64,000 nt of DNA from Candidatus Promineifilaceae bacterium (GTDB taxonomy: Bacteria; Chloroflexota; Anaerolineae; Promineifilales; Promineifilaceae), in contig JBHIWP010000002.1 in assembly GCA_041987425.1 (NCBI GenBank), positions 18,608 through 82,607 on the forward strand. The letters run 5' to 3'. Every line of letters starts with the position of its first letter. Position 1 is the first letter of the stretch. Under the pieces are notes generated by a model. The model made no database searches and was not told where the DNA came from. It saw only the letters and a program-made list of their open reading frames with translations. Positions 5,770 to 35,747 of this stretch are shown here, one piece after another. A program made the position numbers and the translations under genes.

Positions 5770-5954
5770 TCGTTCACCTCATCACTTTGTTCATATTCGG
5801 CTACGGCCGTTTCCAACCGTGCCAGCTTGGTATGATCGTATGTATCAAAGTGCCCCCCGCGCTCCTGTTGTGCCACAAGCGCCTGTTGTTTCTCTAAAGC
5901 TGCCAAAAGGTCAGCCGGTGCTTTACTCCTGGAAGCTGATCGTGATTTCTTCAT
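5766..5954 (-). CDS. Small phage protein, unknown function
   Basis: 62-aa ORF translationally coupled to its neighbours in the head-tail joining block. Confidence 0.4.
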   Translation of the reverse strand: MKKSRSASRSKAPADLLAALEKQQALVAQQERGGHFDTYDHTKLARLETAVAEYEQSDEVNE

Positions 5955-6369
5955 TTACCGTTCCTATCATCGTCGCTACCAACCACTGCGGCGCGTCCGC
6001 TGGGTTTTGTGTAACCTCATTAACGGCCGTTACCTGTCCCTGCTGTACCGTGTTGCCCGTATCGCCTAAGCGGGGATACTGGTCAAGGTTACTCAGAAGC
6101 GTGTTGTAATTGGCCTCTAAGTTGGTCAAGGTACTGCCATCGTCACGATACTTCTGCCACACCTCAATAATGGTTTGCCATACGTTTTGACGGTTCTTAA
6201 AGGTCAACATCTCCCGCGTATGGCTCCCCGGCTTAAGGATGACATAAACAGAAGCCTTGCCATTATCCAGAATGCGCCAATCTCCCCGGCTGGTGTTGTT
6301 CTCATCGTAGCCACTAATGGCCCGAATGCGCGTCAACCAAAGCGCCTCTACATCACTGTAGCCACTCAC
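5923..6369 (-). CDS. Head-tail joining / tail completion-like protein
   Basis: 148-aa ORF assigned by position only, between the connector and the major tail gene. Confidence 0.4.
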   Translation of the reverse strand: MSGYSDVEALWLTRIRAISGYDENNTSRGDWRILDNGKASVYVILKPGSHTREMLTFKNRQNVWQTIIEVWQKYRDDGSTLTNLEANYNTLLSNLDQYPRLGDTGNTVQQGQVTAVNEVTQNPADAPQWLVATMIGTVNEEITISFQE

Positions 6370-6875
6370 GGATTGAACATCCTCCGTCTAAACATTGGCT
6401 GCTCTCTCACGGTGCTATCCGGGTCCGTGCGTTCGCCGTGCTTATTCATGGCCGTAAACGTCAAGGCGGCGCTGGCATCGTCGGCAACCGGCACGCCCTG
6501 ATCGGCCCATGACGTTTTACGCTTCTGTACCCATTCAAAAGGGTCATCACCTAACAGTTCCCACAGTGACTTGTAGCGGCTATCCTCAGAGCCATCAAAA
6601 CCTGTGGAGCGGGCGGTAAGCTCTACCATTGCCGCCGCCCGCGTCCTTACCCACAGGTCACAAGAGCGTTTTGGACTGGCAACCGAAACGGGAATAGAGA
6701 AGCCGCAAGCGCGTATAGCGTCGTTTAAATCGGATGAAATGTCGTCAATAAATGCTTCCACTTCTGACAGGCTGGGACGGCTGGCCTCATCAAATGTTGA
6801 TTCGCCGTCCAAAAAGTGCCGGGTCAATGCCAGCACATCAGCCACAGAAGAGTAAGAACTCGCTTCAATCGCCAT
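6366..6875 (-). CDS. Head-tail connector/adaptor-like protein
   Basis: 169-aa ORF with 4-nt overlap coupling. Assigned by position in the module. Confidence 0.4.
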   Translation of the reverse strand: MAIEASSYSSVADVLALTRHFLDGESTFDEASRPSLSEVEAFIDDISSDLNDAIRACGFSIPVSVASPKRSCDLWVRTRAAAMVELTARSTGFDGSEDSRYKSLWELLGDDPFEWVQKRKTSWADQGVPVADDASAALTFTAMNKHGERTDPDSTVREQPMFRRRMFNP

Positions 6876-7078
6876 TATTTCTTGCCGCTGCCCCGCTTGC
6901 TCTTGCTGCTGCTTTTGGCCTTAGGCGTTACGTTTTCCTCTACAATGACGCCCTGTCGCCACATGCGGCGGTGGGCTTCGTTACCTGCCTCAAAAGCGAA
7001 TAGATCGCCTGCTTTGTATTCTTTGCCGTCAATTTTGGCCGTCTGGTGTGCTACTCGGAACTGAACGTAATCACTCAT
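6875..7078 (-). CDS. Small phage protein with a Lys/Ser-rich basic tail
   Basis: 67-aa ORF coupled to its neighbours. Confidence 0.4.
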   Translation of the reverse strand: MSDYVQFRVAHQTAKIDGKEYKAGDLFAFEAGNEAHRRMWRQGVIVEENVTPKAKSSSKSKRGSGKK

Positions 7079-7334
7079 TTAGATACTTGCCCCTTGCCTC
7101 TTGTTTGGCGATATGCGCCGCCCGGTTGGCATCGTAGTTATCTAGTACCTCGCGTGCGGCTGGTCCTATGTTGTGTTCTTTGTGCGGTGGCAATCCACCC
7201 CACACCACGCTAGGCACCTGTGGCACGCGGCTCATGGCCTCGCCACAGTCGCACACGATACCCGTAGAATAGAGCATCCTATGTAAAACCTCTTTGTAGT
7301 GAGATTCAGGGCACTTGTATACGTAAGTCGGCAT
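7071..7334 (-). CDS. FmdB-type zinc-ribbon protein
   Basis: The N-terminus MPTYVYKCPESH...CDCGE has the paired Cys pattern typical of the CxxC_CxxC_SSSS zinc-ribbon family. Confidence 0.55.
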   Translation of the reverse strand: MPTYVYKCPESHYKEVLHRMLYSTGIVCDCGEAMSRVPQVPSVVWGGLPPHKEHNIGPAAREVLDNYDANRAAHIAKQEARGKYLNE

Positions 7335-7849
7335 TACCTTATCGCCTCCACTCTAAAATCACGCCAGGGCCAATGGTGTAAGGCTGGCTTGACGTGTATG
7401 TTTCCCGCTTTAAATCCCGCGTCGATGAGCATTTGCGTCATGGTGTGCGGTGTGTATCCCCATAGATGTTGATAGTGCGGGTTGCCGTTTTGGTGTCCAT
7501 AAATGGCGTACATATCATGAAACGGCCGTGGCTGCTGCGTAGTTGGAACCATCCCCAGCAGCGCCCTGGCTGCGTACTCTAAATTAGGCTGTTCGGTAAT
7601 CAGCACCCCGCCCGGTTTCAATATCTGGTACACGGCCGTTACAAGCTTTACCGCGTCCCTGTGGTAAAGAAGCTCAATAAAGTGAATCATCTCTACACAA
7701 TCCCACTGTTGCCCTGTTATCTGTTCGGGCAACGGCAAAGCAGGCGCGGCAATGTCGGCTCCCGCCTGTGGGTCAGCATCCAACGTCACCCAGCCCGCCG
7801 CGCGTAATCGGCTTGTTTCTCTCCCGCTGCCAATGTTAAGCCGGTTCAT
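7334..7849 (-). CDS. Class I SAM-dependent methyltransferase
   Basis: LNIGSG glycine-rich loop and the ILKPGGVLI motif. Small Methyltransf_11/23-like size. Confidence 0.6.
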   Translation of the reverse strand: MNRLNIGSGRETSRLRAAGWVTLDADPQAGADIAAPALPLPEQITGQQWDCVEMIHFIELLYHRDAVKLVTAVYQILKPGGVLITEQPNLEYAARALLGMVPTTQQPRPFHDMYAIYGHQNGNPHYQHLWGYTPHTMTQMLIDAGFKAGNIHVKPALHHWPWRDFRVEAIR

Positions 7850-8846
7850 TAAGGATTCTCTTTACCAATGCCATGCCGTTGCCTATGGCCTGATGCATGT
7901 CCATGTAACGGTACGTCGCCAGCCGCCCGGCGAACAATAAGCCATCAGCTTTGGCCCGCTCTGCATACCGCTTGTGTAGCTCATTATTTTCCGGCGTGTT
8001 TATGGGATAAATGCGGTAGTTTGTGCCGTCGTAGGCTTGTGGGTATTCGGTGGTAACGGCCGTTTCCCGCCGGGGCTTCTGTCGATGTCCAAAGTATTGC
8101 CATTCCATTTGACGGGTATAGGTTGGCGTGTAATCGGTGTAATTCATGGTGGCACAGCCAATGCCATGCTGTACGTGTTCTGTCTTCCAGGCGAGTGAGC
8201 GATAGGGCAAACGGCCGTATTCGTAACCATACAATGCGTCAAGTGAGCCGGTGTAAATCGTTCGCTTTGCGGTGGGGCAGTCATCGGGAAACGTTACGCC
8301 TAACTCCACTGGAATGCCCTTTAGCATGTTCTTTATCCATGCCGTGTATCCATGTTTAGGCATGGCTTGATAGCGGTCTGAAAAGTATCTGTCATCGTAA
8401 TCGCTGCGAATAGGGATTCGGGCCAATATGCCACCGGGCAAATCGTCAATATCCATCCCCCACTGCTTGAATGAGTAACCAGCAAAGAACGATTGCCGAA
8501 TAACGGCCGTTGCGTGTTGTTCGTCGCCATTTAAGCCTAGTTGGTGCAGAGTTAGCCTGTTCGGTGGCAAGCTGTACACGTTGCCCCGGTAATGCGCCTT
8601 GACGCGGTGTTCGTATGGTTCCCACTCGCTAAAGCGATTCACGAAGTTCCATATCGGCTTGTTGTTCGTGTGGAAGATGTGGCCCCCGTAGCGATTGATA
8701 AAATAATCCTCGCACGGATCATCATGGCAGTTGCCGCCAATATGATCGCGCTTGTCCACTACCACGCAGGAAGCCCCCGCCTCAGTGAGCAACCTTGCCA
8801 CTGTTGCCCCGGTCAATCCCGCCCCCACAATCAAAAAGTCAGTCAT
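7836..8846 (-). CDS. glf: UDP-galactopyranose mutase
   Basis: N-terminal FAD fold FLIVGAGLTGATVA, IGGNCHD, and GGHIFHTNNKPIWNFVNRF. Length and signatures fit Glf. Confidence 0.85.
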   Translation of the reverse strand: MTDFLIVGAGLTGATVARLLTEAGASCVVVDKRDHIGGNCHDDPCEDYFINRYGGHIFHTNNKPIWNFVNRFSEWEPYEHRVKAHYRGNVYSLPPNRLTLHQLGLNGDEQHATAVIRQSFFAGYSFKQWGMDIDDLPGGILARIPIRSDYDDRYFSDRYQAMPKHGYTAWIKNMLKGIPVELGVTFPDDCPTAKRTIYTGSLDALYGYEYGRLPYRSLAWKTEHVQHGIGCATMNYTDYTPTYTRQMEWQYFGHRQKPRRETAVTTEYPQAYDGTNYRIYPINTPENNELHKRYAERAKADGLLFAGRLATYRYMDMHQAIGNGMALVKRILNEPA

Positions 8847-9595
8847 TAGAAACGATGTCTAAACGCTATCGGCTCGTTGGCATACCACGCTACGCCGTCG
8901 GACATCCACACCCCAAACGGCAAACCGTAATGCTGGTGTGTATGAAACGTGAACGGCAATACAATGGAACTGTAGCCCTGTGCGGCAATCTCATAGCACA
9001 CTAGCCACTGTTGCCGGGCGCGGTGTGCGAGTGTGTCACATGCCTTCTGCCAGTCTTGCATATAGGCGCTGTACAGCCGTCGCCACGTTTTTGCTCTGGC
9101 TACCGTTACGCCAATGTTAAAGCACGGCTCACGGTAAATTTGCTCCCCCCAAAAGTTAGCTAATAATTTTTCGTCAACCTTTGGATGTAACCGCCGCGCT
9201 TCATCTATGAGCTTTTCATTAGGGCCGCTATTCCAGGCTACGCCTACTTCGTTATCTTCCCACGCCTCTAGCCAGCCCATTTCCTCAGTGGTAAACGGCC
9301 GTTGCAAGATAATGTCACCATCGCTGTAAATGATTAAATCGTCATCCTGCACACCGGGCAGTACCCGCAAAAAGGACCCATGCTGTACGCTATTGGTTCC
9401 CTCTGGTGCTCCGTCGTTCTGTTCGTGGCTAATGGTCAATGCCTGCACTTTGGGCAGTTCGTCAAGGTAGCCCGCTGGCACTTCACAGGCTACAGTAATG
9501 AGATAGACATCACCGGGAAAGAAGGCATTCACTGTCTTAAGGAACGGCCGTATTTTCTCTAGATAATCCTCTGTGGAGCTGCATACCAATTTCAT
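8846..9595 (-). CDS. Putative glycosyltransferase (DxD-type)
   Basis: YSDGDIIL DxD-like motif. The start was set at the ATG at 9595, which forms an ATGA overlap with the upstream stop. Confidence 0.4.
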   Translation of the reverse strand: MKLVCSSTEDYLEKIRPFLKTVNAFFPGDVYLITVACEVPAGYLDELPKVQALTISHEQNDGAPEGTNSVQHGSFLRVLPGVQDDDLIIYSDGDIILQRPFTTEEMGWLEAWEDNEVGVAWNSGPNEKLIDEARRLHPKVDEKLLANFWGEQIYREPCFNIGVTVARAKTWRRLYSAYMQDWQKACDTLAHRARQQWLVCYEIAAQGYSSIVLPFTFHTHQHYGLPFGVWMSDGVAWYANEPIAFRHRF

Positions 9596-10464
9596 GTTAA
9601 TAACCTCTCCCATTCGATAGCGGATTGAGCAACCGTGCCCAGTTTGTCTATTTGCCGTTCGCCGTAGCTTGCACCGTCAAGCCTTGTCAGCATCTCACCT
9701 GCGAACAAATCGCACATTCGATAGTCCAGGCCGTCAACCATCGGCAAACCACAGGCCCACGCCGTGAGCGCCTTGTTGTTGCTCTTAACCTCTCCCCACG
9801 GTCCAGGGTAGGGGGGCAGCAGAGCAATATCATGAGAGGCCAATACCTCTACCTCTTTTTCTAGCGACCATTTAAGGTGGTAAATAGGGAATACATCGGA
9901 GAATTGAAAATACAAGTCAGGGCGATTGTCAAAGATGGTCAGTTCTATCTTGTACCCATTGGCTACTAATCTTTCCATGTTGGCTTTTGCCGCCCATAAC
10001 GCTACTCGGTTAGCCGCAATGCCAAACCAGATAAAGCGCACAGGTGAAACGTCATTATGTTGTCGCTGCGTGTGAAAGTGGGACAGCTTCAATCTGTCGG
10101 GAATGCAGGTGGCTAAGTCTTCCCCGTACCATTGATTAAAATCAGTAGCCAGCGCTTCTGTACTGGCAACAACGGCCGTCATATGCCGGGCAATCTCTTT
10201 ACACTCATTAGGTTGCCACCACCATGACGGGTCGCATACGTCCCAATAATGACGCACGTGTGGACTCGCTTTAATCAACGGCAGATTCGCCGTCTTTTGC
10301 CATATGCAAATATCCCCCGGGTTGTCGTAAACCTCCGTCAGGTATTTCATCTCCAAATTACCAACATCGTGCCCCCGCTCCCTTAGCGCCTCTGCTACCC
10401 AATATGCTCGCATCCGTGACGAAGCCCATTCAATAGGCCCGGCGGTTACAAAACAGATATTCAT
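9592..10464 (-). CDS. Putative glycosyltransferase (GT-B-like)
   Basis: Begins MNICFVTAGPIEWASSRMRAYW, a Rossmann-like start typical of GT1/GT4 enzymes. The start at 10464 forms an ATGA overlap with the upstream gene. Confidence 0.4.
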   Translation of the reverse strand: MNICFVTAGPIEWASSRMRAYWVAEALRERGHDVGNLEMKYLTEVYDNPGDICIWQKTANLPLIKASPHVRHYWDVCDPSWWWQPNECKEIARHMTAVVASTEALATDFNQWYGEDLATCIPDRLKLSHFHTQRQHNDVSPVRFIWFGIAANRVALWAAKANMERLVANGYKIELTIFDNRPDLYFQFSDVFPIYHLKWSLEKEVEVLASHDIALLPPYPGPWGEVKSNNKALTAWACGLPMVDGLDYRMCDLFAGEMLTRLDGASYGERQIDKLGTVAQSAIEWERLLT

Positions 10465-11213
10465 TGTGACCCCTGGTGCTCTTGCCGCGCTTTTTGTACC
10501 TGCTCTCGTAAATGGTTCGACCACTCCCGCCGGATGCTTTCGGGTGTGCCGGAATAGTCATCAGGTGACAACGGGTAACTAACAATGTGCTTAGGTCTCA
10601 CATCAGGATCGCCCCACAGCGTAAACCCGGCACGCTTGCACAGCAGCGGATAACGAATATCAGACCCCACCGGGTCTTTTGTCCCTCGCAATGGCGTGCC
10701 ATCCGGCCATGTGTCCATGTCATCTTCGATTACTTCATGCTCCCCACATAAAGACGGCCGTACGGCTTCAATCATGGCCCGGTGCATGAGCATACAGCCC
10801 CAACCGCTTGCCCCCAGCTCGTGCAAGCGCCCGCGTTCGGGGTCATCTGTGAACGGCATAAGCGGCCATTGCCCATCAAATGGCTCGAACCAAACGCTAA
10901 ACATAGGGGCAAACCGACGTCGCATATACAAGCCGCTAACGTAAGGCAGGCCATGCGAACGTAGCCGCTCTAATGTGTCGGCTTCAAATATCATGTCATG
11001 GTCAAGCAGTAGAATGTAATCGTGTTCGGAGGATAGAAATTCGTTAATGTGGAGCTGCCGCGCTTCGTATCCCTTTGTCGCCATTTTGAAGCGGGGGATA
11101 CTGTCCCCATCACGGCGCTGCAAATTCATGATAGATAGTACAGAGTGTACGGGGATTGTGTCAGGCCCAACAACGCCAATATAGGCGCTGCCGGTGTAGG
11201 TCTTTTTCATCAT
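10461..11213 (-). CDS. Putative family-2-like glycosyltransferase
   Basis: ILLLDHDMIF DxD motif. The start was set at 11213 (MMKKTY) and is preceded by a GGGGG Shine-Dalgarno sequence. Confidence 0.45.
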   Translation of the reverse strand: MMKKTYTGSAYIGVVGPDTIPVHSVLSIMNLQRRDGDSIPRFKMATKGYEARQLHINEFLSSEHDYILLLDHDMIFEADTLERLRSHGLPYVSGLYMRRRFAPMFSVWFEPFDGQWPLMPFTDDPERGRLHELGASGWGCMLMHRAMIEAVRPSLCGEHEVIEDDMDTWPDGTPLRGTKDPVGSDIRYPLLCKRAGFTLWGDPDVRPKHIVSYPLSPDDYSGTPESIRREWSNHLREQVQKARQEHQGSQ

Positions 11214-11222
11214 TGTGCCCCC

Positions 11223-11280
11223 TATGCCCTGGGGAAGGAAGCGAACGGGGGCACCAGTCCGCCGCCCTCCCCAGGGCATA
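11223..11280 (-). promoter_or_regulatory. 13-bp perfect inverted repeat (TATGCCCTGGGGA / TCCCCAGGGCATA) just downstream of the capsid gene
   Basis: Arms at 11223-11235 and 11268-11280 with a 32-nt loop. There is no clear U-tract. Confidence 0.3.
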
Positions 11281-11298
11281 AGTAAAAGTCAGAATCGA

Positions 11299-12234
11299 CT
11301 AAACGATGTCAGAGAAGAAAACGCCAGTGCTGGCAGCGACCAATTTCTGGTCCCATTGTTCCGTATGCTGCAACACGCGGCTGTTACGCCGTGCCGGGTC
11401 GTTGTATGTGGCAATCTCGCCCTCACCGCTGTCCCATGCGAACGTTTTCATGCTGGAAACGCTCATCATGTCAGCGCCGGGGGAAACAATGCACAGCAAG
11501 GCATCATCATCAATAACCGGTGACAGGCTGGCCGTTTGTCCAGTGTTGGCAGTGTTGTAAATAGCTCGGCTAACACCCAGAATGTCAATGCCCAAAACGG
11601 CCGCAAGCAAGGCCTCTACCCGCGTTACGGTTTGCGTTTCGGTGTACTGAATCAAGGTCTTAACTTCTGCATTAACAACCAGTGAATCATAAACAATCTC
11701 ACCAACAAACAGAGCATTAGGTGATTTACCCGTCAACTGGCGTACAACCCGCTTCTGCGTGCGGATGTCCTGAACGGGTACACCGCTGGCGTCATCCCAA
11801 TCGGTAGGCGTTGGGTTTGTGGTCCATACACCCGTCGTCATGAAATCAGCCGCAAAAGCGATCTCTTTACGCAGGTTGCTTTGGTGTGCCAACCACTCAA
11901 GCCCCACCTGGTCAAGGCGCATGTGTACCTGGCTGGTACGCTCGTGTTCTACAGGGATCACGTGCTCCAGACCCCATTGCAGCGTCTTGTAGGTGTCAGA
12001 CCCGAACGTATAGCCGCCCTGTGCGTAGGTATCGCCATAGGCGCGGCGTTCCAGCTTGTCAGCAAACCAATGCTTTTGTTCGATGGTTAGATACGTGCCC
12101 GATTCCTCGTTCACCGGCACCACAGGGGCAGCACGGCGGGCGATGAAGTCGTTGTCATCATTCATGTAAGCAATCAGCATATTGGTCAATAGCGGATTGG
12201 CTACAGGTCGTAGTTGTGCAACTGTTGGTCTCAT
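11299..12234 (-). CDS. Major capsid protein (lambda gpE-like family suspected)
   Basis: 311 aa, following the decoration and protease-scaffold genes. The gene order fits the Mu-I protease / DUF2190 / capsid-E type head module. Confidence 0.7.
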   Translation of the reverse strand: MRPTVAQLRPVANPLLTNMLIAYMNDDNDFIARRAAPVVPVNEESGTYLTIEQKHWFADKLERRAYGDTYAQGGYTFGSDTYKTLQWGLEHVIPVEHERTSQVHMRLDQVGLEWLAHQSNLRKEIAFAADFMTTGVWTTNPTPTDWDDASGVPVQDIRTQKRVVRQLTGKSPNALFVGEIVYDSLVVNAEVKTLIQYTETQTVTRVEALLAAVLGIDILGVSRAIYNTANTGQTASLSPVIDDDALLCIVSPGADMMSVSSMKTFAWDSGEGEIATYNDPARRNSRVLQHTEQWDQKLVAASTGVFFSDIV

Positions 12235-12246
12235 TTGGCTTCCCCC

Positions 12247-12609
12247 TTAGTACAGAATGGCCCGCAGCTCGTCACCGATGGCGCTTTTTGATTCGAGCAA
12301 TTGACCAAACGTTTGCCCAGAGGCGGCGATAGCACGGCCGGTAGTATCGAATTGAATCTCAGTACCACGCGTTAGCGTGCCCGTACCAGCAACTACCGTG
12401 ACAACGCCCAAACGGGCAACGGTAGCAGCTTCATTCGCTGCGTCTGGTGCATCCATTAACACGCCCGCAATCACTTCTGTGGTGGCTGTTAAGGCTACGA
12501 TTACATCGGCCGTACTGGCGTGCTTCACAGCATGGTATTGCTTGCTGCTTAGATCGCCCTGAACGTACAGGCCGGGAATGGTCGTGTAATTTCCATGTGT
12601 ATCGCTCAT
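12247..12609 (-). CDS. Head decoration protein (DUF2190-like)
   Basis: 120 aa, Ala/Gly/Thr/Val-rich, lying between the protease-scaffold and capsid genes. Confidence 0.55.
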   Translation of the reverse strand: MSDTHGNYTTIPGLYVQGDLSSKQYHAVKHASTADVIVALTATTEVIAGVLMDAPDAANEAATVARLGVVTVVAGTGTLTRGTEIQFDTTGRAIAASGQTFGQLLESKSAIGDELRAILY

Positions 12610-19544: not shown

Positions 19545-20006
19545 TTAACTGTCCCTTCCCTTTTTGTATCCCCACAACCAAATAACAATCAAGGGGGTCG
19601 CAATCAATGATATTTTGTAAAAAGCATTCGGAGAAAGTGCATCTCCAGAGATGCCGCTAACAATATAAGCAGACTGTGTATACACGTACGCAAGAAAACC
19701 AATGGTTGCAATAATAATGACGTACGCCCTGACAGGCATTACTAATCTGAAAGGGCGAGGATCAATCTCTCTAGTTGCCTTCCCTAAATTGCAATCACAA
19801 CATGCAACAACAAGATTGTCTACTGAATCTGTGCCACCTTTTGAAACAGGTAATACATGGTCAATATGCAGCTTAACATCTGGGGCGCTTCTGCCACAAT
19901 ACCTACACGTAAAATGGTCTCTGCTCAATATTTTCCATCTTTTTTTCTTCGATAAGTTTCTACGCATTGTAAAGTCCCCAGCGCGGCATGGACACAACAA
20001 CCGCAC
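19545..20006 (-). CDS. HNH endonuclease fused to C-terminal transmembrane helices
   Basis: CRYCG...HIDHVLPVSKGGTDSVDNLVVACCDCNLGK, followed by about 3 hydrophobic segments. The start may instead be the internal ATG at 19967. Confidence 0.6.
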   Translation of the reverse strand: MRLLCPCRAGDFTMRRNLSKKKRWKILSRDHFTCRYCGRSAPDVKLHIDHVLPVSKGGTDSVDNLVVACCDCNLGKATREIDPRPFRLVMPVRAYVIIIATIGFLAYVYTQSAYIVSGISGDALSPNAFYKISLIATPLIVIWLWGYKKGRDS

Positions 20007-22028: not shown

Positions 22029-22427
22029 TTAACTCAAAATAATCTTCATATTCTGCCCTATACCTGCGGCAAGATTGCGATCTCTGACCATCAATAGAAT
22101 CTCTCTTCTTAACCCCTTCTCTAGTTCCTTTCTGCCTTTCTGTATATTGCACGAATAGCAAGCAGTAACTAAATTCCACGATTGGTTTAATCGGCTTGTG
22201 GGGCTAAATCCGTTTGTTGGCACAACATGATCGACATGTAACTTAAAATCATACGGGTCATAAGATACAGCACAATAAATACATGTGTAGTTATCACGTC
22301 GCAAAATCACGTCTTTGCAGCGATTTACATCCTCACCCAAAGCTACTGCTCTGCATGTAGTACTACAGTATTTTCTCGTTTTGGGGAATCGCTTAACTGT
22401 TCTACCGCATACTGCGCATTCAATCAT
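22029..22427 (-). CDS. HNH endonuclease
   Basis: CAVCG ... HVDHVVP ... WNLVTACYSCNIQKG. Confidence 0.75.
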   Translation of the reverse strand: MIECAVCGRTVKRFPKTRKYCSTTCRAVALGEDVNRCKDVILRRDNYTCIYCAVSYDPYDFKLHVDHVVPTNGFSPTSRLNQSWNLVTACYSCNIQKGRKELEKGLRREILLMVRDRNLAAGIGQNMKIILS

Positions 22428-22708: not shown

Positions 22709-23527
22709 CTAGCCTATAACCAGTAGTGGCGGATTAGCCCAGGCTACGCGCTTTTTGGCCAGTGCCACGTATTCAGGGCTAATATCAAAGCCCAGGTATT
22801 TGCGGCCGTTTTGGTACGCTATCTTTGCCGTTGTGCCGCTGCCCATAAACGGGTCAAGTACAATATCGCCGGAATTGGACCACGAGAGGATATGATCGTG
22901 CGCCAATTGTTCAGGGAAAATCGCCTCATGCTCAAAAGCGTACCGGTCCTTTGTTGTTCGCCCGGCCCCGATTGCGTATTTCCAAATGTTTCCCCTGTAT
23001 CCTTCTTTCTTTGTAATAAACGGTTTGCGGCCGTCACGCTGTAGCGAGTTGCCATTAATAGCAATAGACCTATTATTGTTGTTTAGTTCGCCTGCATACT
23101 TATTCTTTTTGAGCAACGGATTGAACGTACTCGGTGCGCCCTTTGAAAACACAAACATATATTCAAAATGTTGTTCATATCGGTTGTGCGTCATGGGAAG
23201 GCCTTCACGCCAATACACCATCGTATCGTGTAAATTAAACCCACATTCCATTGCAAAAAGCGCCTGCTTAAAACTTGTGCCAGTTTCAGAACCATCAATA
23301 GTGGCATCAGCTACAACCCAAACGACTACCCCGCCCGATTTTGTCACCCGGTAAAGCTGCTCGATGACTGGCCTGTAATCAAAAATAAAGCCGTTGTACT
23401 TTCGCAAATTATCGTAAGGCGGGCTAGTCACTGTCAAATCAATACACTCGTCAGGCAACCGGCTCATCATTTCGCTACACTCGCCGCAGTAGATTTCGTT
23501 TGCCTCATATGGTCCTAAATCTTTCAT
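22709..23527 (-). CDS. DNA methyltransferase (N4-C/N6-A, N6_N4_Mtase family)
   Basis: DLTVTSPPY catalytic motif near the N-terminus and a C-terminal FMGSGTT AdoMet motif (beta-class order). Confidence 0.8.
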   Translation of the reverse strand: MKDLGPYEANEIYCGECSEMMSRLPDECIDLTVTSPPYDNLRKYNGFIFDYRPVIEQLYRVTKSGGVVVWVVADATIDGSETGTSFKQALFAMECGFNLHDTMVYWREGLPMTHNRYEQHFEYMFVFSKGAPSTFNPLLKKNKYAGELNNNNRSIAINGNSLQRDGRKPFITKKEGYRGNIWKYAIGAGRTTKDRYAFEHEAIFPEQLAHDHILSWSNSGDIVLDPFMGSGTTAKIAYQNGRKYLGFDISPEYVALAKKRVAWANPPLLVIG

Positions 23528-26808: not shown

Positions 26809-27276
26809 TTAAACCTCCACAATACTGACTGCCACTCTTTCTAATTCGTCTAATGGAACCAACAAACCAACCGTGTTGTAATCCTTGTTTGGTATGCTAC
26901 GCGTTTGGTATTTTCGGTTCCAGCGGGATAACTTCTTACGTAAATCTCGCGGCCGTATCACGTATATTGGGCCACTGTCATCAATGTAGTAAAAAATATA
27001 ATCAGCCTGACAGGTATAGGCCCAGCCCTGGATATTTGCCCGGTCTACGCTTATGGTTTCAATGAAGGCATTCCCTGTGCGGCTTGCCGTTTTGTCAGCT
27101 TTGTATTGGATGGCAAATTTTTTACCAGTTTCGTACTCTGTAAAAAACCGGTCAATGCCGCGTCGTTCGTCGTTACGCGCCGCCTCTTTTATTTGGAATC
27201 TGTCAGCAAAAACAGAATCTAAGAATTTTTCGGCACGTCGCCCGCGCTGGAGCTGTCGCTTAAATGAGTATTTCAT
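26809..27276 (-). CDS. Putative PD-(D/E)XK-type nuclease
   Basis: GIDRFF ... AIQYKAD resembles a D...(E/Q)xK core. The start at 27276 forms an ATGA overlap with the upstream stop. Confidence 0.3.
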   Translation of the reverse strand: MKYSFKRQLQRGRRAEKFLDSVFADRFQIKEAARNDERRGIDRFFTEYETGKKFAIQYKADKTASRTGNAFIETISVDRANIQGWAYTCQADYIFYYIDDSGPIYVIRPRDLRKKLSRWNRKYQTRSIPNKDYNTVGLLVPLDELERVAVSIVEV

Positions 27277-28196
27277 TTCCACTCCCACCAGATAACATCT
27301 GGGCTACCCCCACGAAACACCACGACCGCAGACGGAAACGGGGCGCTATTTTCAGCGTTACCAAACTTTAGACGGCCCCGCAAAAAGCGAATTTCGCCAC
27401 GTATGCAATAATCCCACCACCAGCCGGTATCTGTTCTGGCTGGGATAAGGCATACAACCGTCGCACCTTGCATCGATGCCTCCCACGCCTTTGCCATCCA
27501 GTTTTTAATACCATCGCCGTAGGGGGGATTCATCCAGCACACGGCCGTTCCCCAGTCTTGGGACAAGCCATCATCCTCTGGAGAAAAGAATTGCTCACAT
27601 TTGGTATTTGTCACAAGGGCGCAAACGTCAAGATTGAAACCAAATTCAACGTCTAGCAAATCAAATAAATCTTGTGGGGTTTCCCATTCACCTTTTTCGC
27701 TGCTGTAATGAACATCCATATAACGGCCGTTGCTTGCCGGTGGTGTCCATTCATCATCTTCGTATGGTTCAGGATCGGCACTTTCGCCGTCTGCGCTCCA
27801 TAAAGGCGCAAGGTATTCCCGCTTCGTGGCTTCTACGTGCGCGGCCGTTACCTTGCCGTTTGGGGCACTCTCTACGGCCCGCTGCCACACTTCGCGCTGT
27901 TGCTCTGGCTTTAGACTGGTTAAGGGGCGTATTTGACTTTCGTTCTCTGGTTTGGAACCAATTGGTTCCAATACCAAAACCGTTTCGCTAGCGGCAATAA
28001 GCCTATTAGCGTTTTGCCGTGTCATCCCCCACCGCTCCCGGCAATACTCCTCAAACGTGCCGTATTCTTGCCGGTACAAACGGCCGTCACGGATAGCCAA
28101 TAACGCATTGCCAACGTCAACGAACGTTTTTAACCCACGCTCAATCGTTGCTTCGTATTGTTGTAATTCTGTCTGCTCTGTTAACGAGAGTTGCAT
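27273..28196 (-). CDS. Phage DNA N6-adenine methyltransferase with an N-terminal ParB/KorB-like HTH domain
   Basis: WMNPPYG catalytic motif in the C-terminal half. The N-terminal 90 aa are the RDGRLYRQEYGTFEEYCRERWG type. Confidence 0.7.
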   Translation of the reverse strand: MQLSLTEQTELQQYEATIERGLKTFVDVGNALLAIRDGRLYRQEYGTFEEYCRERWGMTRQNANRLIAASETVLVLEPIGSKPENESQIRPLTSLKPEQQREVWQRAVESAPNGKVTAAHVEATKREYLAPLWSADGESADPEPYEDDEWTPPASNGRYMDVHYSSEKGEWETPQDLFDLLDVEFGFNLDVCALVTNTKCEQFFSPEDDGLSQDWGTAVCWMNPPYGDGIKNWMAKAWEASMQGATVVCLIPARTDTGWWWDYCIRGEIRFLRGRLKFGNAENSAPFPSAVVVFRGGSPDVIWWEWK

Positions 28197-28971: not shown

Positions 28972-29448
28972 TCACAGCGTTCCGTTAAGGTACTCAACTA
29001 CTAACTGCTTTACGCTATCCAAATCGCGGCACACGGCCGTTTTGTAACCCTGCGCGGCTAATCTATCCAACCAATCCCGCTGCGCCTCTGTGGGCTTGTT
29101 GTAGCCCACTTTCAGCTCTACATAGAGACCGTGATACCCGCTCCGAGCAACAGCAAGAAAGACATCCGGCACACCGGCTTTTAATCCCGGTTCCGGTCGC
29201 TGCCCTGGTCGGTATTGCCCGTTTGGGATGGCGTACATCATGGCGAGTTCTGGTAGGTCATAGACGGCCGTTTCTGCCCATTCAAATACCGCCGCTTGTA
29301 AGTCGTGTTCGGAGCCTTGCCACTGGCTGCGCTTCCCGCGCTCATCGACCTGCTGAACCGTCACAGCGCGGCGACCTGGGCCGCGTCCAAATAGTTCAGG
29401 ATTCAAAGCGACGGTATCAGGGGAGTAATTGCTAGGGTCAAGGGTCAT
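28972..29448 (-). CDS. VRR-NUC domain nuclease
   Basis: GVPDVFL...GLYVELKVGYNKPTEAQRDWLDRL matches the VRR-NUC D...ExK core. Confidence 0.7.
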   Translation of the reverse strand: MTLDPSNYSPDTVALNPELFGRGPGRRAVTVQQVDERGKRSQWQGSEHDLQAAVFEWAETAVYDLPELAMMYAIPNGQYRPGQRPEPGLKAGVPDVFLAVARSGYHGLYVELKVGYNKPTEAQRDWLDRLAAQGYKTAVCRDLDSVKQLVVEYLNGTL

Positions 29449-31255: not shown

Positions 31256-32221
31256 GTGAATATTTTTGAATCCCTAAAGCGCCGGATGCTATCCACTTCT
31301 GTTCTATATCTCTCTGATGTACCAGAGTTCATAGCGCTTGTCCCTGGCACAAAAATGCGGGATGTTGCCCCCAGCACTCAGAAAAAGTACAAAGACTGTA
31401 TAGCCAGATTCATAGAGTTTATGGGTGAGGATGTGCCGGTTGAAACCATCGACCGGGAGACCTACGCCGCCTTTCACGAATGGCTTGGCACTCGTGGCAC
31501 ACGTGCCATTACCTGCAACGGCTACCGACGAAGGCAGCGGGCCATCTGGAACCGATTACGGGAGCGGGGCATAGACGTTTGTGATAACCGGGGGATATTT
31601 AAAGAGCAACTAGAACCGGCACAAAAATCTAAGGCCACGATGTACGGTCACATGCAATCTATGCTGCAACTCTCTAATGTGAGAGATACGGCCGTCATCC
31701 TCTACACCGCTTCCGCTGGCTTTCGTCGCCAGACGATCCCGCGCTTACGTGTGGACAATACGCGTATATGGCTATCAGATTCAGGCCAGTACCGTATCGC
31801 CTCAAAAATTCCACAGGAAAAGACAAGCCCGCCGCGTCTTATCATCGGCGACGAAGCCGCCGCGCTTGCCGTTAAATTGTGGTTGGAGATTCGGGAGTTC
31901 CAGGATTCGCCCTGGCTGTTTTACGAGATGCACAACGGCGACCAAATGAGCGAGTTCAACGTGTCGGACATTTTCGGACGCCTGCGCCGCGCTGCCAATA
32001 TTCCCGCATGGTCTAACGCTTCTGCACATGGCCTGCGTCACCGTTTTGCTCAGGAGCAACTAAACGAACACGATCAGAAAATAGTTGCTCAGTGGATGGG
32101 AATTAGCGTTGAAACTATGTTGAAGGTTTACGCACACCGTGACGAGGAATCATTAATCACGGCCCGGCTAGGGGATAAAGACTTTCCCAAAGAACTACTA
32201 AATGGTAATGGCAAATCTTGA
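31256..32221 (+). CDS. int: Tyrosine recombinase / phage integrase
   Basis: C-terminal HGLRHRFA ... VYAHRD (R-H-R-Y family) and an N-terminal SAM-like domain. Lies next to tRNA sequence. The start is uncertain (GTG at 31256, or the internal ATG beginning MLSTS). Confidence 0.8.
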   Translation: MNIFESLKRRMLSTSVLYLSDVPEFIALVPGTKMRDVAPSTQKKYKDCIARFIEFMGEDVPVETIDRETYAAFHEWLGTRGTRAITCNGYRRRQRAIWNRLRERGIDVCDNRGIFKEQLEPAQKSKATMYGHMQSMLQLSNVRDTAVILYTASAGFRRQTIPRLRVDNTRIWLSDSGQYRIASKIPQEKTSPPRLIIGDEAAALAVKLWLEIREFQDSPWLFYEMHNGDQMSEFNVSDIFGRLRRAANIPAWSNASAHGLRHRFAQEQLNEHDQKIVAQWMGISVETMLKVYAHRDEESLITARLGDKDFPKELLNGNGKS

Positions 32222-32274: not shown

Positions 32275-32307
32275 GAACCCCCCAAACACGCCTTCCAAGC
32301 TCTTGTC

Positions 32308-32332
32308 ACGGGTTCGAATCCCGTCTGCCGCT
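32308..32332 (+). pseudogene. tRNA 3' fragment (T-arm plus 3' acceptor strand). Candidate att core / displaced tRNA end
   Basis: ACGGG-TTCGAAT-CCCGT followed by CTGCCGC-T. No matching 5' acceptor, D arm or anticodon arm is present upstream. Confidence 0.5.
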
Positions 32333-32366
32333 CTATCCAGCGCAGCAACGGTAGCAAACAGTAATA

Positions 32367-32438
32367 GGGCCTGTAGCTCAACGGCAGAGCAGTCGGCTCA
32401 TAACCGATCGGTTTCAGGTTCGAATCCTGGCAGGCCCA
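32367..32438 (+). tRNA. tRNA with CAU anticodon (elongator Met type, or Ile2)
   Basis: Hand-folded cloverleaf of 72 nt. Acceptor GGGCCTG/CAGGCCC, D stem GCTC/GAGC, anticodon loop CTCATAA, T arm TCAGG-TTCGAAT-CCTGG. G1-C72 is paired, so it is not an initiator. Confidence 0.85.
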
Positions 32439-32861: not shown

Positions 32862-35747
32862 CTATTCCTGAATAGTTATTTCGCCAAGTGGGATCCAACT
32901 ATAAACGGCCGTAATCCGCTCATCTAATATTGTCAGTGGACGGTTGGTAAATGCGTCGTAGAGACGCAATATTCCGCTTATGGTTTGCCCTGTGGTTGCC
33001 TTATTATCTACCAAGAGGACAGGGGCGCCCGGAGCTGGCTTTTCGCTCTGACAAAAATCACTAAATGCAGCAGGCTGCGTGCGCGGTGGAAAAACTACCG
33101 TGCGTGGCGACTGCACGCGTGAGCCGTGAATCCATTTAAGAGTGGGAATGCCGCCCATCGCCGGTACACCGTCTACCAGATCGCACCAGGCCCAGGTGAA
33201 GTTGTCTGCCTCCAGCCCCACCAGACGTGTAGAAACCACATAGTCGCGCAGGAGAGGACGGCCGTTTATGAACCGAATCGGCATGGCAAACGCGCCTCCT
33301 GCGGCAAGTGCATCTCGTCCATCAGAGAGGGAATCGCCAAGCCAAACAAGGCCCTGCCCCAAAGGCACATAATGCTCAACTGCGGCAGGCTCGGGTACCA
33401 GCCACCCCGCTTGCGGCACGCCCCAGGGACCAAGCGTCGGCGGCAGCAGGTTGCTCAGCTCTGTTTTTGAGAGGTTGTCGTGGGTGCTGCTCCAATAGCC
33501 GTTTTCATTTCGCCAGTGCAAATAAAGTCGCGTCTGATCTGGCAGCGTTTGATCCCAATCGTAGCCAATGAGCGTCTGCATAGGGTGCGGAGCCACTACT
33601 GGGCGATGCACCGGATTTTGGGTGGCGGGCGGCATGGAGGCCAACGTGACGGGCAGCGTGCCAATTTCGCTAAATTCAGCCCCGCTGCCCAGCCGCAGCG
33701 TGTAATTTCCCGGCCCCTGACGCGGCGTCAGGCGGAACTGAGTGAGCGTAATGCCCTCAACCTGCGGCATTGCCAGGACATCTGCCTGGGCTACAATGCT
33801 GGCTGATTCATCGAGGAGATGGACAAAAAATTGTCGCGGCTGGCTCCCTTGCCAGGCAACTAATAGACGTGATTCCAAACCAATTTCTACTTCAGATTGG
33901 GCCAGGTGATAGCCTAAAATCTTCGCCTCTCCCAGCGTGAGGGTGAGGGGGAGATATTCAGCGGGCAGCTCTGTAAGCGGTGCCTGGCGGAAGAGCAGCG
34001 CTTCACCGAGCGGCTCTGCGCGGGGCAGGGCGCTGTAGGCAGCCTCATCGACGTAGGTGGCAACGACAGAACGGCCGTTTGCCAACCCGGCATTAATCTC
34101 TTCTATCCAGGTCAGACTATATGGGCCTTCACCGGGCGCAACGTATTCAATGTGCACATCCGGCCGGGCGCCCTCTACCGTTTGTAAATACCACAGTGGT
34201 GTGGCCCAGTGCCAGTTAGCCAGAATCAGGCTGTCCGGTGGCGCGTCCTCCAAGATTGTTGTGGCGTAGTCACGTGCGTCTTCCGTATGGTGGAGCCAGC
34301 GATAGCTGGGCCAATGCTGCCACCCCTGCCACACGGCCGTTGTGAAGAGAACGGCCGTCGCCGTGAGCGGAAGCCAGCGTAGAACCACTGGCTGCTTCCA
34401 GGCAGACGTTCCCAGGTGGCCACTGGCTACACCGAGGCAGACGGCCAGGGGTACATAGACTGGCAGCATGTACTCCACCGTTTGCGGAGCGCGGTAGGTG
34501 GCTGTTACGAGCGTGTGCAGCGCAAAGGCGCCGCCCAGCAGCAGCCCCACGCGCCACTGGCGCCGCATCAGAAGCAGCCAGCCTAAAGCCGCCCCAGCCA
34601 GCAGCCAGGGCGAGAACTGAAAGGTAAGCACATTGCCCATTACCTTTAGGCGTGGCCACAGCACGGCAGGATGTACGTAATAGAAGAAGTCTCCCTGAAA
34701 GCCCAGCGCCAGAAAGTGGTTCAAGAAGCCGGAAGCCGTGCTGAGCCCGGCGCTTGCCCCCGGTACATTGGCCCCAGCGCGTAGGGGCAGGTAGAGCAGA
34801 GGCAATAGACCAAGCAGGGCAGCAAGGAACGGCCGTTTCCAACGAGCTGGCGTCTTAATAAAGCCAGGGTCCATGAGCAGCAGGCTCAGGCCAAAGACAA
34901 GCCCCATAAAGGCCAGCGACAGATGGTGCGTAAAGCCGAAGCCGAGGGCAGCGGCGAATAGGATCAGATAACGATCGGTTTGATCCTTTTTTTGCCAATG
35001 GCGCACAAGGGCATAGATAGCCAGCACGGCAAACAGGGCCGTCAGGCTGCGAATGTTGGCGGTTGTGGCCTGTGCCCAAAAAGTGGTGGCGGTTCCCAGG
35101 GCAACGACGGCTGTTACCGCCGCCAGATACCGCTCCGTGAGCCGATACACCGTCAAATAAACCAGTCCCAGGGTGATTGCGCTGGTCAGCGCGGAGAGGA
35201 GATTTATTTTGTATGCAGCCGTAGCCGCCAGGGGCAACCAGGTGCTCAGCTTGCCGAGCAGGGTATAGAGTGGAAAACCAGGTGGGTGCGCCACCCCCAG
35301 CGTGGCTCCCACCAGCTGAAATTCTCCGTTGTCAGCCGGTAGCAGGCCCGGCGCCAGGGTAAGCACATATAGCACAAAAAACAGACCCATACTGCCGTAC
35401 AACCCTAGCTGTAGGGCCTGTTTAGGCGTCAGGATTCGCTGGGGAAAGGGGAGGAACTGGGCCAAAACGGCCGTTACTAAAAGAAGTACGGCGGCAGCGG
35501 CAGACAGGCTGGGATGTGGATAAAAAACGTAGGCCAACAGCAAGAGGAGCGGCCACGTCTGGCTTAGCGGGTGACGGCGTAAGCTAAAAATAGCCAGTAA
35601 CGACAGGCTTGCCGTGAGCAAAATTGCAGCAGCAAGGCTGGCTTCATAATGGATAGCCCACTGTTCGCTCAGAACGCGCCCGCCAAACAACCCCAGCACC
35701 AATGGAGCAAGCAGTGGGGCAATCTTTTCTTTGAGGTTTTGCCACAT
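32862..35747 (-). CDS. DUF2723 / GT-C-fold membrane glycosyltransferase-like protein with a large C-terminal extracytoplasmic domain
   Basis: More than 10 hydrophobic helices in the first 450 aa. A PADNGEFQ acidic loop motif follows early helices, as in PMT/ArnT-like GT-C enzymes. Confidence 0.6.
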   Translation of the reverse strand: MWQNLKEKIAPLLAPLVLGLFGGRVLSEQWAIHYEASLAAAILLTASLSLLAIFSLRRHPLSQTWPLLLLLAYVFYPHPSLSAAAAVLLLVTAVLAQFLPFPQRILTPKQALQLGLYGSMGLFFVLYVLTLAPGLLPADNGEFQLVGATLGVAHPPGFPLYTLLGKLSTWLPLAATAAYKINLLSALTSAITLGLVYLTVYRLTERYLAAVTAVVALGTATTFWAQATTANIRSLTALFAVLAIYALVRHWQKKDQTDRYLILFAAALGFGFTHHLSLAFMGLVFGLSLLLMDPGFIKTPARWKRPFLAALLGLLPLLYLPLRAGANVPGASAGLSTASGFLNHFLALGFQGDFFYYVHPAVLWPRLKVMGNVLTFQFSPWLLAGAALGWLLLMRRQWRVGLLLGGAFALHTLVTATYRAPQTVEYMLPVYVPLAVCLGVASGHLGTSAWKQPVVLRWLPLTATAVLFTTAVWQGWQHWPSYRWLHHTEDARDYATTILEDAPPDSLILANWHWATPLWYLQTVEGARPDVHIEYVAPGEGPYSLTWIEEINAGLANGRSVVATYVDEAAYSALPRAEPLGEALLFRQAPLTELPAEYLPLTLTLGEAKILGYHLAQSEVEIGLESRLLVAWQGSQPRQFFVHLLDESASIVAQADVLAMPQVEGITLTQFRLTPRQGPGNYTLRLGSGAEFSEIGTLPVTLASMPPATQNPVHRPVVAPHPMQTLIGYDWDQTLPDQTRLYLHWRNENGYWSSTHDNLSKTELSNLLPPTLGPWGVPQAGWLVPEPAAVEHYVPLGQGLVWLGDSLSDGRDALAAGGAFAMPIRFINGRPLLRDYVVSTRLVGLEADNFTWAWCDLVDGVPAMGGIPTLKWIHGSRVQSPRTVVFPPRTQPAAFSDFCQSEKPAPGAPVLLVDNKATTGQTISGILRLYDAFTNRPLTILDERITAVYSWIPLGEITIQE

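Follow-up and report, generated by a model that had tools for sequence, protein, structure and literature searches.

Gene content and setting of the cassette

The window studied here, a stretch of 64,000 nucleotides from a Candidatus Promineifilaceae bacterium (contig JBHIWP010000002.1), contains a prophage whose minus strand carries six open reading frames (ORFs) at 7071-11213, between the major capsid gene and the head-tail genes. We refer to these six genes as the cassette. In the order of transcription they are gtC (10461-11213, 250 amino acids), gtB (9592-10464, 290 amino acids, starting MNICFV), gtA (8846-9595, 249 amino acids, starting MKLVCSS), the gene for a short form of UDP-galactopyranose mutase (Glf; 7836-8846, 336 amino acids), the gene for a small class I S-adenosylmethionine (SAM)-dependent methyltransferase (7334-7849, 171 amino acids, motif I LNIGSG) and, as the last gene, one for an FmdB-like zinc-ribbon protein (7071-7334, 87 amino acids). 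The first three products are predicted glycosyltransferases (GTs): a GT2-like enzyme of GT-A fold, a GT4-like enzyme of GT-B fold and a second enzyme of GT-A fold, respectively. Upstream, on the same strand, lie the gene for the major capsid protein (11299-12234, 311 amino acids, HK97-like “capsid E” type) and, just before it, the gene for a head decoration or cement-type protein (12247-12609, 120 amino acids). The 85-nucleotide spacer between the capsid gene and gtC (11214-11298) contains an RNA hairpin (minus strand, 11222-11282). Downstream follow p67, p169 and p148 (5923-7078, minus strand), which have no match in Pfam or PHROG and are presumed from their position to be head-tail joining genes; homologues of p169 and p148 form the same right-hand border in relatives.

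A preliminary description of this DNA, made from its letters, had drawn the six genes as a co-oriented, translationally coupled chain from the capsid gene to the connector genes, with ATGA or TAATG at the junctions. Within the chain this is borne out at four of the five internal junctions (gtC/gtB and gtB/gtA, ATGA; gtA/Glf and methyltransferase/zinc ribbon, TAATG), whereas Glf and the methyltransferase overlap by 14 nucleotides. The entrance is different. No codon coupling joins the capsid gene to gtC across their spacer, and gtC starts at the ATG at 11213 (the 250 amino acid form in the NCBI record) rather than at the ATG at 11279, which lies inside the hairpin. At the far end the overlaps continue through zinc ribbon/p67 (8 nucleotides), p67/p169 (TAATG) and p169/p148 (GTGA), so that cassette and downstream head-tail genes form one fused chain.

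Gene order and codon coupling together uphold the placement of the cassette inside the late structural operon. Genes for a protease, a Mu-F-like protein and the portal lie upstream of the capsid and decoration genes, and the tape-measure gene lies downstream of the cassette; a 504 amino acid product encoded beside the portal gene is taken, by its homologues, as the large terminase. In a promoter and terminator scan, promoter-like sites in the cassette were not above shuffled sequence, terminator-like sites were slightly above it, and no cassette-specific signal appeared. None of the six cassette proteins has a membrane segment (highest 19-residue hydropathy, 1.32).

Are the three GT-like proteins glycosyltransferases? 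The preliminary description had credited all three with DxD motifs and proposed profile searches as a check. Searched directly, gtC, gtB and gtA have no match by sequence in Pfam, NCBIfam or the PDB, and profile searches against the PDB returned noise alone. All three are glycosyltransferases that become visible by distant methods only: structure prediction for gtA and gtB, and transitive profile searches for gtC. The gtC product carries the motif LLLDHDM, in which a DHD follows a hydrophobic strand and Asp-71 and Asp-73 are invariant in 29 sequences. It has at least 511 homologues, and among the matches listed one has a Pfam match; close homologues match PF00535 weakly in six of 29 cases and PF13641 in two of 29. 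The profile of the gtC family reaches distant relatives at E-values of 1e-15 to 1e-41. Fifty of these were scanned, and they matched PF00535 (GT2; 13 proteins, best E-value 6e-29), Anp1 (10), Glyco_tranf_2_3 (PF13641; seven) and GT21 (five). The families so reached (GT2, Anp1/GT62, Glyco_tranf_2_3 and GT21) all have the GT-A fold, and by this chain of sequence relationships the gtC product is classed as a GT2-like GT-A glycosyltransferase. An hhalign comparison of the gtC family with an ad hoc alignment of Pfam-positive GT2 island proteins, too heterogeneous to be informative, gave a probability of 0.9%.

The AlphaFold2 model of gtB (pLDDT 95.3) has the two Rossmann domains of a GT-B fold. Its Foldseek matches in the PDB include ManT (7qsg, E-value 1.5e-9), MshA (3c4q, TM 0.77), BshA and PimA, and in BFVD it matches viral GT group 1 (GT1) proteins at TM 0.81, with giant-virus GT1 proteins among the fold matches. 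The gtB product also matches phrog_7162, “glycosyltransferase” (E-value 1e-6). Weak matches to Glycos_transf_1 or Glyco_trans_1_4 (E-value approximately 0.004) appear in two to three of 31 gtB homologues and in the window protein not at all. The protein has no DxD motif, and a GT-B enzyme needs none; its modeled structure makes it a GT-B enzyme, GT4-like by fold. The gtA product has no match in Pfam, NCBIfam, PHROG or PDB sequences, and its placement near CAZy GT8/GT6 is by proxy, outside any curated family. The gtA model (pLDDT 96) has a Rossmann-like GT-A fold, closest to the retaining enzymes of GT8 and GT6, with Foldseek matches to LgtC (1g9r, E-value 3.6e-9), XXYLT1 and alpha3GalT/ABO (E-values to 1e-7, probability 1.00, TM 0.46-0.59). 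Its DGD (residues 92-94) is invariant in 19 homologues. Among 5.8 billion proteins the family numbers 19 homologue clusters in total, none with a Pfam match. Judged by the model, gtA encodes a GT8/GT6-like GT-A glycosyltransferase of a tiny, undescribed family, and it is a candidate galactofuranosyltransferase. Acidic motifs are thus present in two of the three enzymes, DHD in gtC and DGD in gtA.

The other cassette enzymes are easier to place. Glf, recognized as such in the preliminary description, matches PF03275 with an E-value of 1e-57 (195.4 bits; cut-off 26.3) and the E. coli mutase 1i8t with an E-value of 1.6e-75. Its FAD-binding GxGxxG motif is present as VGAGLTG (residues 7-13; NAD_binding_8, E-value 3e-17), and a residue alignment with 1i8t and 3hdq shows that HIFHTNN, RIPxR..YFSDRYQ, YTR, YPxN and GRLAxYxYxDM are kept as well. 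The substrate and catalytic motifs (the mobile-loop Arg, a second Arg, Tyr residues and HxFHTN) are invariant in seven phage copies. The protein falls below the NCBIfam equivalog cut-off (TIGR00031, 289.4 bits against 303.75, in two stretches) because approximately 26 residues of the helical domain are deleted (E. coli residues 118-142). This deletion is common to the window and to three other phage loci (L002, L124 and L125) and so spans two capsid lineages, while L003 and L123 are full length. From homology the identification as UDP-galactopyranose mutase is secure, and mutase activity is predicted. The methyltransferase is likewise upheld, by a narrow pass of PF13489 (Methyltransf_23, 28.3 bits against a cut-off of 27, E-value 1.7e-6); homologues lie in the same module in L002, L003 and L123, and we presume that it is a sugar O-methyltransferase.

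The zinc ribbon had been assigned to FmdB. It belongs to a conserved family, but stays under the curated cut-offs of both Zn_ribbon_8 (PF09723, 24.6 bits against 34.4, E-value 2.6e-5) and TIGR02605 (22 bits against 31.3, E-value 1.2e-4). Its first knuckle reads C-x3-H; the second reads CxC in the window and CxxC in most relatives. The family consensus, MPxYxY.C..GH...H.M...CxxCG..MHRxPQ...NWxGLPP, has a distinctive C-terminal RxPQ...NWxGLPP, and on sequence we regard the protein as FmdB-like, in a separate subfamily.

Capsid linkage and the variable island

How widely is this arrangement shared? The preliminary description suggested comparing related prophages, and in that comparison the capsid-linked layout is kept across the lineage. 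A survey anchored on gtB gave 47 loci from GTDB genomes, IMG/VR and contig look-ups; all of those with upstream DNA have the same head module, in the order protease, decoration protein, capsid, gtC, gtB. A second survey, anchored on the capsid gene, gave 56 informative loci, or 49 non-redundant clusters at 90% capsid identity. In all of these loci but one (55 of 56; 48 of 49 clusters) gtC comes after the capsid gene, at capsid identities as low as 37%; the odd one out has the most divergent capsid, with an identity of 30%. Position two is occupied by gtB proper in 17 of 38 clusters. Where no gtB can be detected, every protein tested from that slot (10 of 10) is another GT-B enzyme, alone or fused to Methyltransf_24. 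These surveys give a core layout in which the capsid gene is followed by a GT-A gene, a GT-B gene (sometimes with a methyltransferase), a variable island, usually the zinc ribbon, and the connector. One relative, L002, keeps the six-gene order of the window, with cassette proteins 68-86% identical; more distant relatives keep capsid-gtC-gtB and then have different genes. Clustered at 90% identity, the gtC family still numbers more than 500 clusters, and in this phage lineage the gtC-GT-B core is ancient.

Cultured phages with distantly related capsids (at most 30% identity) have no GT after the capsid gene, and a search of a phage collection with the DNA of the cassette and capsid gene found no match. 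In the assembled, podovirus-like MW202711 (L128) the order is capsid, a 100 amino acid ORF, a gtC-like GT and tail tubular protein A. The relatives are binned with Anaerolineae, Gemmatimonadota and Proteobacteria, the binning of phage contigs into metagenome-assembled genomes being unreliable evidence of host. As a separate observation, most relatives have an ORF of approximately 100 amino acids between the capsid gene and gtC (L004, 6684-7016; L005, 1793-2104; L123, 2876-3184). It occurs also in the unrelated MW202711 (L128, 4537-4839); the window has no such ORF.

Beyond gtB the loci diverge, with an island of approximately 0-6 kb overall. The distance from gtB to p169 ranges from approximately 0.1 kb to more than 5 kb among the surveyed loci, and the island between them may hold GT1, GT2 and GT11 enzymes, at least three kinds of SAM methyltransferase, a nucleotidyltransferase, a NUDIX hydrolase, Glf and gtA. 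Five loci have a B12-binding radical-SAM enzyme downstream of gtB (L004, L008, L021, L023 and L026) and L004, L008, L015, L021 and L026 have a SPASM radical-SAM enzyme, four loci holding both. These pairs hint at unusual sugars on those phages, possibly C-methylated or otherwise rearranged. The exchange can be clean. In L015 and L017, whose capsids are approximately 70-74% identical to that of the window, a GT2 enzyme, a 71 amino acid ORF and a SPASM radical-SAM enzyme replace gtA, Glf and the methyltransferase (window 7334-9595), with the gtB and zinc-ribbon genes conserved on both sides.

One pairing within the island is constant: gtA lies at most one gene from Glf in all eight contexts with enough sequence (the window, L002, L003, L027, L123, L124, L125 and L127). 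It extends to other capsid lineages. L124, which has a capsid of another family (PF25209), carries GT1-GT2-methyltransferase-gtA-Glf between the capsid and head-closure genes, and L125 carries gtA, Glf and a GalE-like epimerase just upstream of the head-closure genes, its capsid gene lying outside the contig. We found gtA in phage structural modules only. The zinc ribbon shows a pattern of its own. Among the loci examined it ends the island in 15, each of which has either a SAM or radical-SAM enzyme or a fused GT-B::methyltransferase, and it is absent from minimal loci with only gtC-gtB(-gtA). This distribution suggests a tie of the zinc ribbon with methylation and not with the GTs.

The island invites the question of origin. 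The preliminary description proposed that the cassette may have been captured from the host lineage, on the grounds that the palindrome ACGGCCGT is densest there within the prophage. The palindrome occurs 92 times in the 64 kb against one to two expected, in all reading frames; host DNA carries 1.7 copies per kb and the prophage 1.15. The cassette is mildly enriched, with nine copies against 4.2 expected (2.1 per kb, P approximately 0.03, uncorrected). The portal gene has a comparable density of 2.6 per kb. The closest phage relatives (L002, L003, L015, L017, L018 and L021) carry ACGGCCGT as well, at 0.5-1.2 per kb, and it is missing from distant relatives whose GC content is similar. It resembles a highly iterated palindrome that belongs to the host clade and is mirrored by its phages. 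A literature search for ACGGCCGT gave incidental matches only. A narrower form of the proposal is that gtA, Glf and the methyltransferase are recent cargo from a host chromosome, with no role specific to the virion. The marginal, uncorrected excess of ACGGCCGT speaks for it, but the cassette has the GC (0.50-0.54) and GC3 (0.55-0.61) of the flanking structural genes, L002 keeps the six-gene order at considerable divergence, and gtA is confined to phage structural modules. We consider this origin very improbable. Given the composition, the ancient core and the prophage-wide occurrence of the motif, capture of the cassette from the host lineage is not supported.

An RNA hairpin at the cassette entrance

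The spacer between the capsid gene and gtC folds into a hairpin (11282-11222) of 18 plus 7 base pairs, with a minimum free energy of -54 kcal/mol for 101 nucleotides and a z-score of -6.1. No longer inverted repeat occurs in the prophage part (1-32300) of the window. Bases 11254-11247 form the apical loop of the hairpin, 5'-GUGCCCCC-3', which complements 5'-GGGGGCAC-3' (11222-11215), the Shine-Dalgarno (SD) region right before the gtC AUG. The hairpin is not a canonical terminator, because no U-tract follows it. In Rfam it belongs to no family, the sole match being a sub-threshold chance match on the other strand.

The relatives have hairpins of other sequence and the same architecture, with compensating loop/SD pairs: UGCCCCCUG/CAGGGGGCA, UAAGCCCCC/GGGGGCUUA, UGACCCCC/GGGGGUCA, GUACCCACUCC/GGAGUGGGUAC, UAUUCCACUCCC/GGGAGUGGAAUA and GCGUGCCUCC/GGAGGCGUGC. 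A loop-SD hairpin lies upstream of gtC in L002, L003, L009, L011, L017, L021, L028, L036, L037, L042, L056 and L058, and a predicted structure at least 14 base pairs deep (median approximately 24) is found at this position in all 65 of 65 non-redundant loci. The loop-SD pairing was tested by permutation across loci; the minimum-energy fold absorbs the SD region and undercounts such pairings. The mean energy of the duplex between apex and SD is -11.35 kcal/mol for cognate and -8.28 kcal/mol for non-cognate combinations, and none of 20000 permutations was as low. The hairpin is probably a translational throttle that holds the enzymes below the capsid protein, and it may also stabilize the 3' end of the capsid mRNA.

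Proposed virion glycosylation and related systems

We propose, with a probability of roughly 0.6, that the cassette encodes a late cytoplasmic glycosylation pathway that decorates a virion protein: the capsid protein, the 120 amino acid decoration protein and/or the tail tube. The proposal builds on what is described above: how the genes are ordered, which folds and families the enzymes belong to, their linkage to the capsid gene, the variable island and the conserved hairpin; the late timing is read from the position of the genes. It is favored by the late-operon position with its codon overlaps, by the lineage-wide capsid linkage, by an island that behaves like a surface locus, by the occurrence of similar GT modules in independent capsid lineages, by a cytoplasmic pathway free of membrane proteins, and by the precedent of the mycobacteriophages. 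The suggestion of the preliminary description that the sugars go onto the virion thus gains strong circumstantial support, with a virion protein as the putative acceptor.

The pathway might run as follows. The gtC enzyme would put the first sugar on a structural protein and gtB would extend the glycan. Glf would turn host UDP-galactopyranose into UDP-galactofuranose (UDP-Galf), from which gtA would transfer galactofuranose; the small methyltransferase would O-methylate one of the sugars, with the zinc-ribbon protein as a putative accessory factor. The hairpin, with its loop on the ribosome-binding site of gtC, would keep translation of the enzymes far below that of the capsid protein, and the overlapping stop and start codons would hand ribosomes along the cassette and on into the head-tail genes.

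Two neighboring gene products are candidate acceptors. The major capsid protein matches phrog_1005, “major head protein” (E-value 1e-56), and PF03864 weakly. The decoration-type protein matches phrog_673 (E-value 4e-11); its homologue in L004 and L123 matches PF09956 (Phage_cement_2), and Arthrobacter phage Kovu has a gene in this position with the annotation “head fiber protein.” In the capsid alignment (A5, the window and 21 relatives) a loop before an invariant Trp, at columns approximately 138-152 (window residues approximately 136-149), is rich in Ser, Thr and Asn in the GT-bearing lineage (GVWGT-DN[TN]S[AT]T-DWDD), often with N-x-S/T (DNTSAT, DNNSTT). Outgroup capsids without a neighboring GT have a DLTGVSGTP-type loop, and the window capsid has NPTPT. 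We considered this loop as a sugar acceptor site and set the idea aside as too speculative, the window itself having NPTPT.

Several points weigh against modification of the virion. The whole case for a virion acceptor is built on where the genes lie and on their being inherited together. A lack of membrane proteins does not settle the matter, since soluble GTs that have no membrane segment can also use lipid-linked sugars on the inner side of the membrane. Aligned with its 21 relatives, the capsid protein shows no extension at the C-terminus, whereas C-termini are where the mycobacteriophage glycans are reported (PMC12619734). A tblastn search of 50,697 phage genomes, mycobacteriophages included, gave nothing for gtB or gtA and a single weak, unrelated match for gtC, so the likeness to the proven systems is one of function and not of homology. 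The lineage has no cultured member, and, the phage being temperate, lysogenic conversion is formally possible.

Might the cassette then serve the cell rather than the particle? The enzymes could alter a glycan of the host envelope (O-antigen, wall polysaccharide or S-layer), either by lysogenic conversion or by late masking of receptors, which would keep progeny off debris or block superinfection. An integrase gene (31256-32221), a tRNA 3' fragment (32307-32333), tRNA-Met (32367-32438) and then host-type genes identify the element as a temperate phage or prophage. Bacterial Glf normally supplies galactofuranose to the cell wall or O-antigen, soluble GTs can use lipid-linked intermediates, and the island is variable like an O-antigen locus. 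On the other hand, a membrane protein, flippase, polymerase or initiating phosphoglycosyltransferase is seen neither in the cassette nor among the Pfam-annotated island proteins, and a membrane segment occurs in three of 104 island ORFs of the relatives. The genes are coupled by codon overlap into the late operon, with promoter-like sites not in excess. Morons usually lie at module borders with their own signals, and neither the capsid linkage in 48 of 49 clusters nor the same slot in unrelated capsid lineages would be expected of them. We regard a role in the envelope as unlikely.

The region around the integrase offers some further observations. The tRNA fragment between integrase and intact tRNA-Met is a 3' end (T-arm and acceptor), probably what is left of an att site at the right-hand boundary of the prophage, whose left end falls before the first position of the window. 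The first host gene past the prophage (32862-35747, minus strand) encodes a 961 amino acid PMT_2/TMEM260-like protein O-mannosyltransferase, which means that the host has protein glycosylation of its own. Next comes, at 36279-38939, the gene for a Ser/Thr kinase with TPR repeats.

Phage-made UDP-Galf, which the preliminary description thought unusual, is less so than supposed: Glf occurs in 89 GenBank phage records. The window protein is 36-38% identical to the Glf of Pootjesviridae (Rhizobium phage RL38J1 and Sinorhizobium phage PhiM9) and of T4-like Aeromonas phages, with which it would share the making of UDP-Galf. In the literature searched, a Glf within a capsid-linked cassette is not mentioned, and in this respect the case is distinctive. 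In the Pootjesviridae and T4-like phages Glf has genes of DNA hypermodification for neighbors, and its proposed role is to supply DNA glycosylation (PMC13326640), which raises the alternative that the enzymes here attach galactofuranose or other sugars to hypermodified bases of the phage DNA as a defense against restriction. T4 DNA alpha-glucosyltransferase is indeed among the structural matches of gtB, at rank 15 (TM 0.56); the best fold matches, however, are GT4 enzymes that act on small or lipid acceptors. Moreover, Glf lies beside gtA in the head module and not in the replication module. Among 15 early-region ORFs scanned against Pfam, the only matches were N6/N4 and Dam-type DNA methylases, a pair of HNH endonucleases, a VRR-NUC nuclease and an HTH protein, with no base hydroxylase, hydroxymethylase, thymidylate-synthase-like enzyme or dNMP kinase and hence no base-modification enzyme beyond the DNA methylases. 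(The genes for the two HNH endonucleases, the N6/N4 methylase, the Dam-type methylase and the VRR-NUC nuclease are at 19545-20006, 22029-22427, 22709-23527, 27273-28196 and 28972-29448.) We give DNA glycosylation little credence.

Decoration of the virion remains the favored explanation, and it is tempting to extend it to the whole lineage. With odds somewhat short of even, in our judgment, the cassette would be one instance of a lineage-wide “capsid serotype locus” of a large uncultured group of tailed phages with Mu-like head modules. A priming GT-A enzyme would be inherited with the capsid gene and followed by a GT-B enzyme; a rapidly exchanged island of glycan-tailoring functions (methylation, radical-SAM chemistry, galactofuranose) would give different sugar coats; and the conserved hairpin, its loop masking the ribosome-binding site, would gate the whole locus. 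On the same reading gtA would represent an undescribed, phage-restricted family of galactofuranosyltransferases, and the gtA-Glf-methyltransferase trio would cross capsid lineages, always landing beside the capsid gene.

To our knowledge, only a few actinobacteriophages have so far been shown to glycosylate their virions with enzymes that they encode themselves. The present study adds a lineage-wide, capsid-linked and hypervariable architecture, the pairing of Glf with gtA, and a conserved RNA gate. If the proposal is correct, sugar-coated virions would be a core and ancient trait of a widespread environmental phage lineage, and the glycan would be under diversifying turnover like bacterial O-antigen loci. 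Such turnover would point to selection at the particle surface, e.g., by adsorption to non-host material, predation, stability or recognition by host or animal defenses. Glycan shielding would also be relevant to phage therapy, because it alters antibody recognition. The loci would further supply reagents, namely a compact Glf, a candidate RNA for throttling translation, and two GT families plus one Glf-linked GT family that no curated resource describes; and a GT-A gene directly after a capsid gene would be a simple metagenome marker for glycosylated phages.

The cassette can be compared with several known systems. Chloroviruses and giant viruses use their own cytoplasmic GTs to make unusual, partly methylated glycans on the major capsid protein; they differ from the present case in their eukaryotic hosts, an unrelated capsid fold and the lack of operon structure. 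The Gtr serotype-conversion cassettes of Shigella and Salmonella phages encode membrane proteins (the GtrA flippase, the bactoprenol GT GtrB and a multi-span type-specific GT) beside int/att and are expressed in the lysogen. Here too a temperate phage carries sugar-modifying genes, but their six products are soluble and the genes lie in a late operon approximately 20 kb from the integrase, which places the cassette outside the Gtr type. In bacterial galactofuranose pathways Glf works with GT2-type Galf-transferases such as GlfT1/GlfT2 and WbbI. The cassette resembles these in that the Glf gene adjoins a GT-A transferase that would use the Glf product; in contrast, gtA belongs to no described family and is nearer to the retaining GT8/GT6 folds than to GT2, and the cassette has no lipid-carrier machinery.

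The closest parallel is with the mycobacteriophages, whose enzymes are reported to modify capsid and tail-tube proteins in Che8, Corndog and Myrna (Freeman 2023, via PMC11600133, PMC12619734 and PMC12363180). Corndog, which has the closest layout, carries genes for an O-methyltransferase and three GTs (gp35-38) within its structural operon (PMC4351075). In both cases phage-encoded soluble GTs and a methyltransferase are embedded among virion structural genes. The Corndog cassette lies between portal and protease, that of the window between capsid and head-tail genes, and Glf, the Glf-linked GT family, the zinc-ribbon gene and the upstream hairpin pairing with the SD region are found here and not in Corndog. 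The GTs of the window have no detectable sequence similarity to those of Che8 or Corndog, and the mycobacteriophages infect Actinobacteria, whereas the lineage described here is associated with non-actinobacterial bins. Virion modification is proven in the mycobacteriophages and proposed here from the genes. Without being homologous to it, the cassette appears by analogy to match the mycobacteriophage type by every genomic criterion.

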